Positions 36,001-39,000 of a stretch of DNA of 64,000 nucleotides are shown piece by piece. Numbering within the stretch: position 1 is the stretch's first letter; each line of letters opens with the position of its first letter. Made by a program: the position numbers. Source of the stretch: Mycoplasmatota bacterium (GTDB lineage Bacteria; Bacillota_I; Bacilli_A; MAG-NZ); contig CP074575.1 in the NCBI GenBank assembly GCA_018394315.1, positions 1,768,615-1,832,614 of the forward strand. Direction: 5' to 3'.

Positions 36001-39000
36001 CATTAGTGAGTTTTATTTGTGAGTCGGGATGATAAAGATAATCTTTAGTAGTTGAAGTGTATACATACTCATCATCCTGGTTCTTTATATCAATAGTTCG
36101 AATAATATTAATATTTTAATATTTATTTCGATTACTTCGCCATTATAATCTATATCATGTTTATTACATTCTTAATCTAACAATTCTACATCATAGCCTA
36201 TGATTTCAAGTAATTCTATTAATTCTTCTATTTCTTTATTGGTTTCATTTATTTTCAACGTTTGATTAGTTATATTAAACTCCAAATCTGATATACCTTC
36301 ACCTAAAAAGAAACTTCTTATTTCACTTTCAATATCTTCTTCAATTGGATTTAATATCTTCAATACTATTTGAGTATCCTTTGTTTTATAAGTTTTATCA
36401 ATTAAATATCCTGCTTTTTCTATTGCTTTATAAGCGTCTCTCACGCTAAGATCTCCTTCTTCAATCATGACAATATCATTAAGCATGTCAAATTTCACTA
36501 TTGAAAAGCCTGCAGAAATCAGCTCTGATTCGATCTTTAATCTACAATGCCCACATGCCATATTGACAACTTTTATTTCCTTCATTTTATCTCAACTCCA
36601 TTGTAGTAAGACAAGTTAGATCACCATCAAACGTAGAAATAGTTGAAGTACTGCTAAGCCCATTATAATTTACAGTAATAGTACCTTCTATTTCTCTAGG
36701 TAACCAAAGTTCAAAGAACCCATTTCTCAAACTTGTAACTTCGTTATTAAATATTTCTTTACCATAGCTATCTTTTACAATAACCTCAAATCTTTTCTCA
36801 ACCAGTTCAGCTCTACATCCTGTAGCACTATGGATTAGTCAGGTATGAGTAGTGTTTTCATATGGAGCAACAGCTACATAAAACATTTCTTCAGGCATTT
36901 CGTACTTCAGCTCAACAGAACCTGATCGTATGACTAGTTTGTCATCATATACTGAAGCACCCACATCCTTTATTGAAGTAGACATTTCTCCCAATTTGTA
37001 AATAATCTCCTCTATTGAAAGTTCCTCAATTCCTAGATTTTCTTTTAATTTTAACTCATCCGAAATTCCAGATTTAGTACATCCAGTTAATATTAGTACC
37101 AACACAAATATTATTACCAACTTCTTCACTTTAATCACTACTTCCTATAGATTTTACTTATTAAAATTACTATTACTTTTGGATTTTTTCGTACATTCGG
37201 TATGCTTGCACATATCACAATCAATCTCAATTTCTATACCATCAGGAGCAGGGGTATTGTTATTAAGTAAATAAGAACCAATATATATTGCTACCATACC
37301 TAAAACAAATAAAACGACAATAAGATTTTGAATCATTGTCTTCACTCCTTTCTACTTTTGTTTATATTCTATTATATAAATATGAACAGAATATGAATTA
37401 TTAGATTGATATATTCTTCATAAGAAAAGGAGTGTCTATACACCCCTAAAATATATATACTAGAATCCTCTAGAAGATCTGTAACTAGTATTTCTTCTAT
37501 AATTATTATATGAACCATGGCAACTACCGTAGAATCTACTATTAGATCCGTATCCATTCATAAATCCACCCATGTAATCGCCATATCCGTAATAGTCTAG
37601 TCCTAATTCATTAGCTTTGTCTTCAACTAAAGAATCAATAGTTTCGCGAGCGTTAATTGTTTCTTCTTCACTCATACTCGCCCAGTCATATGAGAACATC
37701 AAGTTGTGCATATAATACATTAACTCTGTCTGTTCATCTGAAGCGTAACCATACATCATTCCTGGTCGAAAACCAGCCCCAAAATCAGGTAAGTCTAATC
37801 CAAGTTCGATTGCTTTTTGATCTAAGAGTTGATTCATTTGAGATTGTGCTTCCCTGATTTCTTCAGCAGTCATTGCCGAGAAGTCATAAGCCTCAATTAA
37901 TTCAATCTGATAGTCCATGAATTGTTTCATTTCTTCATCAATAAATAATCTGTTCATACCTCCATGCATACCAAACCCACCATATTCTTGTGTTTCTTCA
38001 AATCCTAATTTTTGAGTCGCCATATGATAATAATCTTTTACTTGATTTTGTACACCATCATATGTTGCTGCAAATCCTCCAGTTAATAATGAAATAGATA
38101 ATAATAAACCTTTCATCATATTCCTCCTTTCTTATTTTACTATTATATTATAGATAATAAATGTATAGTAAATATGAATTTCAATTTCCAATACGATTTA
38201 GAGAACCATCATAGAGCAAGCTCTAAATTACAAAAACCCCGTTCTTTATAGAATCGAACAAGGGTCTTAATTTATTTCTCAAGAAGTTTTCATAAACTGT
38301 TTTACAGTTTAGTAATTATTTTAGTTTTATTATTTCCTAACACTTGAATTACTAAATTTATCTAATTGTTAACAATCTCCTCAATTTTCTCTTTACAACA
38401 TCCAAATTCAGAAACTCCGCAGTACTCTTCAATTTCTGAAACTGTAGTAGCTCCTTTTGAAATTGATTCTTCAATTTTAGCTTTACTAATGTTGTGACAA
38501 CAACATATGATTTCCTCAACTTCATTTTGACTAACAGTAAATCCTGCATCTTTTATAGTTTTTAAAATTATTTCCTCATTCTGACCGTTGAGTTCTACAT
38601 CAACAATTTTATCCTCTAAAGATATTTTATAACTTTCTATCCCTAAATCAATTAGCGCTTTTTCAATCTTTTCAGAACATGTTATACAGTTCATATCTTC
38701 TACTTTTACTTTCATTTTTGTATACTCCTTCTTATTGTAATTACTCATGTTACTTCTAATTTTCTGTTTTGAATCTCTTTAACCTTAATGCATTTAACAG
38801 TACAGAAATAGAACTGAAACTCATTGCTGCTGCAGCAAACATTGGATTTAACTTAGGCCCACCAAATGCAAAGAATAGACCAGCTGCTAGAGGTATTCCC
38901 GCAGAGTTATATGCAAATGCCCAAAATAAATTTTGTTTAATGTTTTTAATAGTGCTTTTACTAAGATGAAGAGCTGTTACAACGTCTAGTAAATCGCTTC

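Follow-up and report, generated by a model that had tools for sequence, protein, structure and literature searches.

A gene (36587-37138, minus strand) encoding what is almost certainly a selenoprotein form of the copper protein CueP was identified in the window, the whole 64,000-nucleotide stretch of a Mycoplasmatota contig that was analysed. The TGA at codon 100 of this cueP gene is, judging from reading frame and comparison, almost certainly decoded as selenocysteine (Sec), and a full-length product of 183 aa would be made. This Sec variant of CueP is judged to be real and widespread, and it is probably unlisted. The best overall explanation, which is held to be probable, is that Sec-CueP serves as a copper sink on the outer face of the membrane beside the copper ATPase CopA.

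Reading frame, protein family and copper site

The table 11 open reading frame of the cueP gene ends at 99 aa (36839-37138, minus strand). As the earlier note had claimed, the frame reads on for 83 codons past this TGA. The recomputed frame (37138-36587, minus strand) contains 183 codons between a GTG start and a TAA stop, with U at position 100 and a single in-frame TGA (36841-36839). A putative lipoprotein-type signal peptide with the lipobox L-T-G-C20 was read by eye from the sequence at 37079-37138, and a lipobox pattern was matched in five of the seven TGA forms of this class.

The product matches the Pfam family CueP (PF21172; E = 1.3e-39, profile positions 2-137 of 138, 135.5 bits against a cut-off of 27) and the NCBIfam family CueP_fam (NF038094; E = 1.1e-42, positions 3-146 of 146, 145.2 bits against a cut-off of 60), whereas it scores 126.5 bits with the Salmonella-type CueP model NF038095, below the cut-off of 195. 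Sec-CueP belongs to the broad CueP family and not to the Salmonella-type subfamily. No other NCBIfam model was matched by the protein (P0001) in the NCBIfam profile search. Sequence alignment placed residues 38-183 on residues 16-161 of Salmonella CueP 4gqz_A (E = 3e-27); these match figures of the earlier note were reproduced exactly. Residues H98, U100, H103, C108 and C176 align with His94, Cys96, His99, Cys104 and Cys172 of Salmonella CueP, respectively, which are named as copper-site residues in the accessible text of PMC3935622. The TGA codon (36839-36841, minus strand) lies in the column of Cys96. The motif H98-x-U100-x-x-H103-x4-C108 (36815-36847) shows no variation among all 28 proteins of an alignment when U is read as C, and the third site residue, Cys176, is encoded downstream of the TGA (36611-36613), as placed by the 4gqz and the 28-row alignments.

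An AlphaFold2 model of the read-through product, for which the input was the 28-row alignment with U read as C, has a pLDDT of 92.7. A Foldseek search with this model retrieved 4gqz_B (rmsd 1.6, TM 0.79/0.90), and the next-best fold after 4gqz had an E value of 4e-3. Sec-CueP thus shares with the CueP proteins of Salmonella (4gqz; PF21172; NF038094/NF038095) and Corynebacterium a common fold (Foldseek E = 5.8e-17), the site H-x-C-x-x-H-x4-C with a C-terminal Cys, an exported location (putative here) and a link to a Cu P-type ATPase. It differs in having Sec in place of Cys96 and in its predicted lipid anchor, whereas Salmonella CueP is a free periplasmic protein. Its setting also differs from that in Salmonella, since neither a CueR box nor SodC nor DsbD turned up in the source genome. 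Sec replaces Cys in the Cys96 column only; the other two cysteines were never Sec in the complete genes seen, although at the second site the DNA search pattern itself required Cys.

Predicted selenocysteine decoding, SECIS-type hairpin and distribution

The genes selC, selD and selA and a selB-like open reading frame are contiguous at C1:712683-716661 in the source genome (2.17 Mb, 31% G+C, 93.6% complete). The tRNA-Sec gene at C1:712683 is followed by a SelD-like gene, SelA (E = 4e-147) and the SelB-like frame; SelA and tRNA-Sec were identified by model, and the SelD- and SelB-like frames were named from sequence and position. The SelD-like gene carries an in-frame TGA of its own. A second unlisted Sec candidate, a lipoprotein with the motif S-C-T-U-R, lies next to the sel operon. 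The read-through scan of the genome also gave four genes with TGA that we take, from their motifs, to be two GrdA-like and two GrdB-like genes. RF2 is present in all five genomes tested, with an internal TAA in one RF2 match. The only tRNA-Trp of the source genome has the anticodon CCA, no tRNA-Trp(UCA) was found in it, and 217 of its 1667 long open reading frames are terminated by TGA. Since the sel genes, RF2, the CCA-only tRNA-Trp and the TGA-ended frames occur together, TGA in this genome is read as a recodable stop and not as a Trp codon.

The TGA form was compared with the occurrence of the Sec machinery in two samples. In the class survey, a CueP match was found in 48 of 400 scored genomes including the source genome (45 above the cut-off); the 47 given earlier fits the count without the source genome. 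Seven matches in six genomes carry one TGA, which lies in the same column (H-x-U-x-x-H-x4-C) in all seven, as had been reported. SelA was found in 17 of 399 genomes of the class, namely in five of the six genomes with TGA-CueP versus one of the 42 with TGA-free CueP only. In the sixth genome (G087, 55% complete), SelA, SelB and tRNA-Sec were not found; tRNA-Sec was detected in the same four of five relatives. The second, independent sample comprised 251 genomes from one Bacillales order; 53 of them carry CueP, and a fragment (G646) was excluded from these. SelA was present in 24 of 24 TGA carriers versus nine of 28 TGA-free carriers (background 123 of 251), and the TGA column was verified in all 25 genes of the 24 TGA-carrying genomes. 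The Fisher p value for this sample (1.4e-7) overstates the association, as do the values of 1e-7 and 1.5e-8, since related genomes are not independent. Five loci picked from motif matches all lie in SelA-bearing genomes, and one of these genomes, G401, had already been counted with the 24. The confinement of TGA-CueP to Sec-using genomes is supported in two independent samples. Sec is not required by the family, since nine SelA-bearing Bacillales genomes have the Cys form alone.

A SECIS-type upper hairpin with a 5-bp stem and a GGA loop (36813-36825, minus strand) was located by folding and comparison 18 nt after the UGA, and a predicted lower helix extends it to 36802-36833. According to Fig. 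2 of PMC13188914 (accessible text), bacterial SECIS elements have a loop of 3-9 nt with G first or second, a stem of 4-16 bp and a distance of 16-37 nt from the UGA; the window hairpin, with its loop, upper stem and spacing, fits this consensus. The earlier note had considered the hairpin weak evidence, and this is correct for the hairpin alone: the 52-nt fold has -9.5 kcal/mol and a z score of -1.25, a value equalled by 19 of 200 shuffles and not significant alone, and no SECIS or other Rfam match near the gathering score was obtained between 35500 and 38500. Two hairpins of the Desulfobacterota type gave z scores of +1.57 and +0.32. As the folding energy of single sequences is uninformative, the support comes from comparison, where the judgement no longer applies.

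The key comparison, whether the hairpin tracks the TGA codon or the peptide, was made among distinct genes encoding the same L-T-G-C-Q peptide. A Watson-Crick stem of at least 5 bp occurs in 17 of 17 Bacillales Sec genes versus one of 16 Cys genes, and in 85 of 85 pattern-derived Sec genes with this peptide among the matches listed. All of these Sec genes (17/17, and 85/85 among the matches listed) share one fixed codon set that is used by none of the 16 Cys genes, the search pattern having fixed only the Cys codon (TGY) within the hairpin stretch. In this class, the stem reaches 5 bp in six of seven Sec genes versus none of three Cys genes having Gly there; the one other TGA form (L037, genome G018) has a 3-bp stem only. 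Among 15 aligned Sec genes, four of six pairs vary on both sides and 93% of the cells pair, and the covariation score was reached by none of 500 shuffles and by no slid register; the rows were author-chosen and some of the covariation accompanies amino-acid changes. The source genome's two GrdB-like genes have their loop in this register as well. These observations support a SECIS-type hairpin that is maintained through synonymous-codon choice in the TGA forms only.

The Desulfobacterota-type clade has no Gly at this position, and its hairpin is a different one, whose loop is GUC or GUA and lies four bases further on. Among the matches listed, this hairpin has at least five contiguous pairs in 99 of 114 genes and fewer than five in 15, and the Ser codon is nearly fixed (111/114) and the Cys codon fixed (114/114). 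The stem occurs in one of 29 and none of 23 genes of two Cys groups, a comparison in which only one Cys gene from the Desulfobacterota-type phylum was seen. With respect to the bacterial SECIS consensus (PMC13188914, accessible text), a single family has two hairpins: that of Bacilli places a GGN loop on the Gly codon, and that of the Desulfobacterota type has a GUC/GUA loop.

The range of the TGA form was determined with the DNA pattern A-P-Y/F-x3-T-H-x-TGA-x2-H-x4-C in genome contigs and metagenomes. At least 235 matches were obtained (at least 119 genome-contig and at least 116 metagenome loci), and 229 of the 235 matches listed are CueP homologues (117 and 112, respectively). Among the matches listed with a complete 3' end, the TGA is followed by a tail of exactly 83 codons in 203 of 215, and the third cysteine is retained in 214 of 215. 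By record title, 78 of the 117 genome-contig homologues listed are from Bacillaceae, 16 from Thermodesulfobacteriota and 13 from Myxococcota or phylum-less records, mostly titled delta proteobacteria; the remainder are a few others, including Mollicutes- and Erysipelotrichia-titled records. Strains of Neobacillus, Cytobacillus and Mesobacillus are among the culturable carriers. The TGA form thus extends far beyond the two families named in the earlier note: at least 229 CueP homologues, mainly of Bacillaceae and the Desulfobacterota type, carry it. In contrast to the DNA scan, a protein-seeded scan of genome contigs found no relative, and a scan of the phylum of the source genome gave no further TGA form. 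In the phylum of genome G404, CueP was found in three of 251 genomes (two TGA, one Cys), a number too small for a test. Among plasmids, 22 records matched, all with less than 60% identity. In a quick IQ-TREE tree of 116 rows and 141 columns, 13 Sec/Cys changes are needed versus 38.7 for shuffled labels, and at least three changes are forced by well-supported branches; 50 of the 113 branches are open, and no direction of change is claimed.

Copper context, proposed role and alternatives

The cueP gene of the window lies in a single-orientation cluster (minus strand) with genes for a two-component system, a SHOCT protein, a Cu ATPase, an HMA-BFD protein and an HMA protein. At the head of the cluster are a SHOCT membrane protein, a sensor kinase and an OmpR-type response regulator (41811-44156; profile matches), and genes resembling these also adjoin the TGA forms in loci L034, L035 and L038. 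The copper-translocating P1B-type ATPase (CopA-like, 38756-41224) scores 621 bits with TIGR01511 against a cut-off of 397, in agreement with the copper P-type ATPase noted earlier beside cueP. It is followed by an HMA protein with a BFD-like [2Fe-2S] domain (38362-38748; profile match) and by two open reading frames between copA and cueP (37154-38119), which encode a 63-aa protein with C-x-x-C-x4-C and a 219-aa Gly/Met-rich protein and have no Pfam or NCBIfam match. An HMA-domain (CopZ-like) gene (36172-36585; profile match) starts 2 nt past the read-through stop, a pairing also present in L035.

A Cu-type (heavy-metal) ATPase adjoins TGA cueP in the window and in four of six other loci of the class (L035, L037, L038 and L039), and a multicopper oxidase and a metal-sensing repressor each stand beside one of the six. 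Copper context is thin elsewhere: a CPx-type ATPase motif was found in six of the 84 loci examined, four of these from this class, and most Bacillaceae TGA cueP genes stand alone. Several Desulfobacterota-type loci have redoxin, MauE/DoxX and rhodanese neighbours, and cytochrome c is also among the neighbours. Operator patterns of CsoR, CopY and CueR gave at most one match per group, which is not above chance, and none upstream of the seven TGA forms of the class; a conserved operator was not found, and promoter-like sites are at chance level (56 versus 60.8 expected).

The accessible texts of PMC3935622 and PMC13201067 report that Cu(II) oxidises Cys96 and Cys104 of Salmonella CueP to a disulfide at about 1:1, that mutation of any one site residue abolishes DNA protection, and that the protein is thought to be a copper sink that is most needed without oxygen. 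Re-reduction by DsbC/DsbA is described in the accessible texts of PMC3935622 and PMC4546943. By analogy with this protein and from the gene context, Sec-CueP quite probably captures copper at the outer face of the membrane. In the proposed mechanism, SelB and Sec-tRNA would decode UGA100, guided by the GGA-loop hairpin. The product would be exported and lipid-anchored at Cys20, as suggested by the lipobox, and in its predicted CueP fold the site His98/Sec100/His103/Cys108/Cys176 would be exposed at the membrane's outer face. Copper from the neighbouring CopA or from outside would be captured there and kept away from Fenton chemistry and re-entry. General Sec chemistry suggests, with about even chances, that the selenolate would be a softer, always-ionised Cu(I) ligand with tight binding and that a Sec100-Cys108 bond, formed on contact with Cu(II), would be more easily re-reduced than a disulfide. 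An easier re-reduction would matter here because DsbD (DsbD_TM) was not found in the source genome.

Among the alternatives, Sec-CueP may be mainly a redox enzyme that catalytically reduces Cu(II) or peroxide through Sec100-Cys108 and is re-reduced by an exported thioredoxin, with copper binding secondary. This reading is somewhat doubtful: the Cu(II)-made disulfide of Salmonella CueP and its recycling by DsbC/DsbA (PMC3935622 and PMC4546943, accessible texts) favour it, as does a TlpA/redoxin-type gene that directly adjoins cueP in the Desulfobacterota-type loci L064, L068, L088 and L127 (its gene cluster comprises six of 84 loci), whereas DsbD_TM was not found in the 93.6% complete source genome and no exported thioredoxin was found by Pfam or NCBIfam in the window cluster. 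It is compatible with the copper sink, the two not being exclusive. A delivery chaperone that hands copper received from CopA over to an exported cuproenzyme is unlikely; this role, with SodC as the recipient, has been proposed for Salmonella CueP (PMC3935622 and PMC13201067, accessible texts), and a multicopper oxidase adjoins TGA cueP in L037 and L075, but Cu/Zn-SOD (SodC) was not found in any of the five near-complete TGA genomes of this class and COX1 was not found in the source genome. The role of a Cu(II)-reducing metallochaperone given in the earlier note is only inferred, and its chaperone-to-SodC and Dsb-recycled versions are weakened in this lineage, where SodC and DsbD were not found.

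Free copper is scarce in sulfate reducers, and above all in these the site could act on a soft metal other than copper or on a metalloid (Ag, Hg, Au or Se species), or in general envelope thiol balance. The thin copper context of the Bacillaceae and Desulfobacterota-type loci and the rhodanese, MauE/DoxX and cytochrome c neighbours point in this direction, but all five site residues are kept (the Cys96 column as Sec) and the Cu-type ATPase adjoins cueP in the window and in most of the other class loci (4/6), so that such a role is rather improbable. Least of all is it to be expected that the TGA is a true stop (of a pseudogene or split gene), a code 4 Trp codon or a sequencing error. Databases give truncated products of 94-95 aa for seven of ten genes looked up, full-length proteins with W exist (eight of the best 120 matches, and P0002), and two broken copies are known (the second copy of G655 and the G646 fragment). 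Nevertheless, the same TGA column is found in at least 229 homologues, which have intact tails and come from several phyla, the site is lost in the broken G655 copy, whose TGA is at another cysteine, and the TGA form depends on SelA. The database protein with 72% identity (P0002) does have W, as had been pointed out, and a metagenome locus of the same sequence (L243) has TGA there. Code 4 Trp, pseudogene and sequencing error were rejected on the basis of RF2, the CCA-only tRNA-Trp, the TGA-ended frames and these same-column homologues. The original reading of Sec in the Cys96 column is supported by the Sec machinery, the exclusion of code 4, the SelA co-occurrence in both samples and the TGA-specific hairpin. 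At the level of sequence, the gene has all the features expected of a bacterial selenoprotein.

Selenoprotein inventories and implications

The earlier note had feared that surveys of selenoproteomes might already list a CueP-like family, and no such listing was found in the accessible sources. Neither a CueP domain nor H-x-U-x-x-H-x4-C is present in the whole Table 1 of 119 prokaryotic selenoprotein families (PMC13188914, 2026), and 'cue' occurs 0 times in the accessible text of that paper. The families of Haft and Tolstoy 2025 appear in the same table. CueP was not found in the accessible text of the deep-Sep paper (PMC12013277) or its four supplements, in that of BSepDB (PMC13326102) or its supplement, which lists genomes rather than families, or, as 'cue', in the accessible texts of SelCysML (PMC13745706) and the 2022 Haft preprint. 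A literature search, judged largely by titles and the starts of abstracts and covering few subscription papers, gave no paper on a Sec form of CueP. The truncated products are in the protein collection for seven of the ten genes, the named ones as 'hypothetical' or 'uncharacterized', and the best 120 database matches to a Bacillaceae Sec form include none with U and eight with W. A prior annotation of Sec-CueP would be somewhat unexpected.

Sec at soft-metal sites has precedent, and CueP adds a Sec variant. Predicted metal-handling selenoproteins in Table 1 of PMC13188914 include CopZ-like (2Fe-2S)-binding forms 1 and 2, a cation-transporting ATPase (UxxC), a putative mercuric transport protein, the NF041115 UxxU metal-binding protein, the SO_0444 Cu/Zn efflux transporter, MbdU and SaoB/SaoX/SaoC. 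These have in common with Sec-CueP the substitution of Sec for Cys at a soft-metal site, which was recognised through Sec/Cys pairing, and SaoX and SaoC are exported lipoproteins according to the accessible text, as is predicted for Sec-CueP. Their domains and motifs are unrelated to CueP. Most predicted metal-binding selenoproteins are without structure or assay, whereas the Cys form of CueP has a solved structure and mutant data, and the role of selenium is therefore directly testable.

There is a reasonable likelihood that Sec-CueP is a widespread and unlisted selenoprotein family whose selenium both binds copper directly and acts as redox partner in exported copper defence, that Sec and Cys were switched several times, and that two separately built SECIS hairpins lie within copper-site codons. 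If this is true, a selenium-dependent copper defence exists in aerobic, culturable Bacillaceae, together with a natural Cu-Se protein site that has a solved Cys counterpart. Sec-CueP adds a family missing from the 2026 inventory, although species-level genomes hold at least 117 such loci, about 80 of which are in Bacillaceae and kin, type strains included. The read-through would explain a class of 94-aa 'hypothetical proteins'. With matched Sec and Cys genes and the Cys-form data, it can be tested what selenium contributes to a copper site and whether copper tolerance is set by the supply of selenium. The matched gene pairs also allow the rules for bacterial SECIS elements to be tested cleanly on natural material, in Bacillota as well as in Desulfobacterota. 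Close relatives carry Sec and Cys genes that are nearly identical, and one genome of the Bacillales sample (G438) holds both.

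A candidate selenoprotein gene beside selC

A gene encoding a 221-aa lipoprotein with an S-C-T-U-R motif was identified outside the window, on the plus strand of the genome under study (G000:C1:711912-712577, corresponding to L002:730-1395). This gene is preceded by a double rhodanese gene and followed immediately by selC, and its product is a candidate second selenoprotein. Both the TGA and a hairpin with a GGU loop are conserved in two of the five genomes searched (G002 and G061). Among 15 database homologues, the Sec position is occupied by Cys in nine and by W in two, the remaining four having no match to the motif regex. 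A signal peptide is the sole NCBIfam/Pfam assignment of the lipoprotein, without any family match, and one homologue provides a weak lead to FMN_bind.

The same genome contains two further gene sets with in-frame TGA (C1:227987, 231327, 1616683 and 1618170 (minus)), which we take from their motifs to be GrdA-like and GrdB-like. Folding of the GrdA-like genes gave no clear hairpin (-3.1 kcal/mol).

Repeats, remnants and mobile elements around the copper cluster

A repeat in the window comprises the 3' end of a small, presumably spore-protein-like gene on the minus strand (51367-51606), together with its downstream hairpin. Five copies are present (35467-35628, 44333-44494, 29851-29990, 30547-30655 and 51244-51436), and none was found outside this part of the genome. 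Because two of the five bracket the copper cluster, tandem insertions at the 3' end of this gene are suggested, with the copper cluster as an acquired module.

Two short minus-strand stretches (35329-35363 and 33377-33411) resemble the 3' end of the tmRNA, the gene of which lies at C1:1042749-1043096; they are possible old attachment sites. An ISL3-family transposase is encoded at 27791-29077 (plus), and a closely similar second copy at 54392-55678 (minus). Gene remnants occupy the interval from the SHOCT gene to copA (41260-41823, minus): one corresponds to the C-terminal end of an Lgt (44 positions, Pfam E 1.9e-9), and the other is an additional SHOCT-like piece.

CueP and SelA records in other genomes

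The Bacillales genome G655 (L333) contains an intact Cys-form CueP and a decayed second copy; it has neither SelA nor SelB. Sec and Cys copies of CueP occur together in another Bacillales genome, G438 (L316/L286). Locus L070, from a record titled Chryseobacterium, encodes a Sec-CueP of the Bacillaceae type, and its neighbouring genes match those at loci L076, L098 and L107; the record is probably mislabelled. A SelA match in a further genome (G282:C1:230215-231312) contains one TGA; a different genetic code may apply in the family of this genome.
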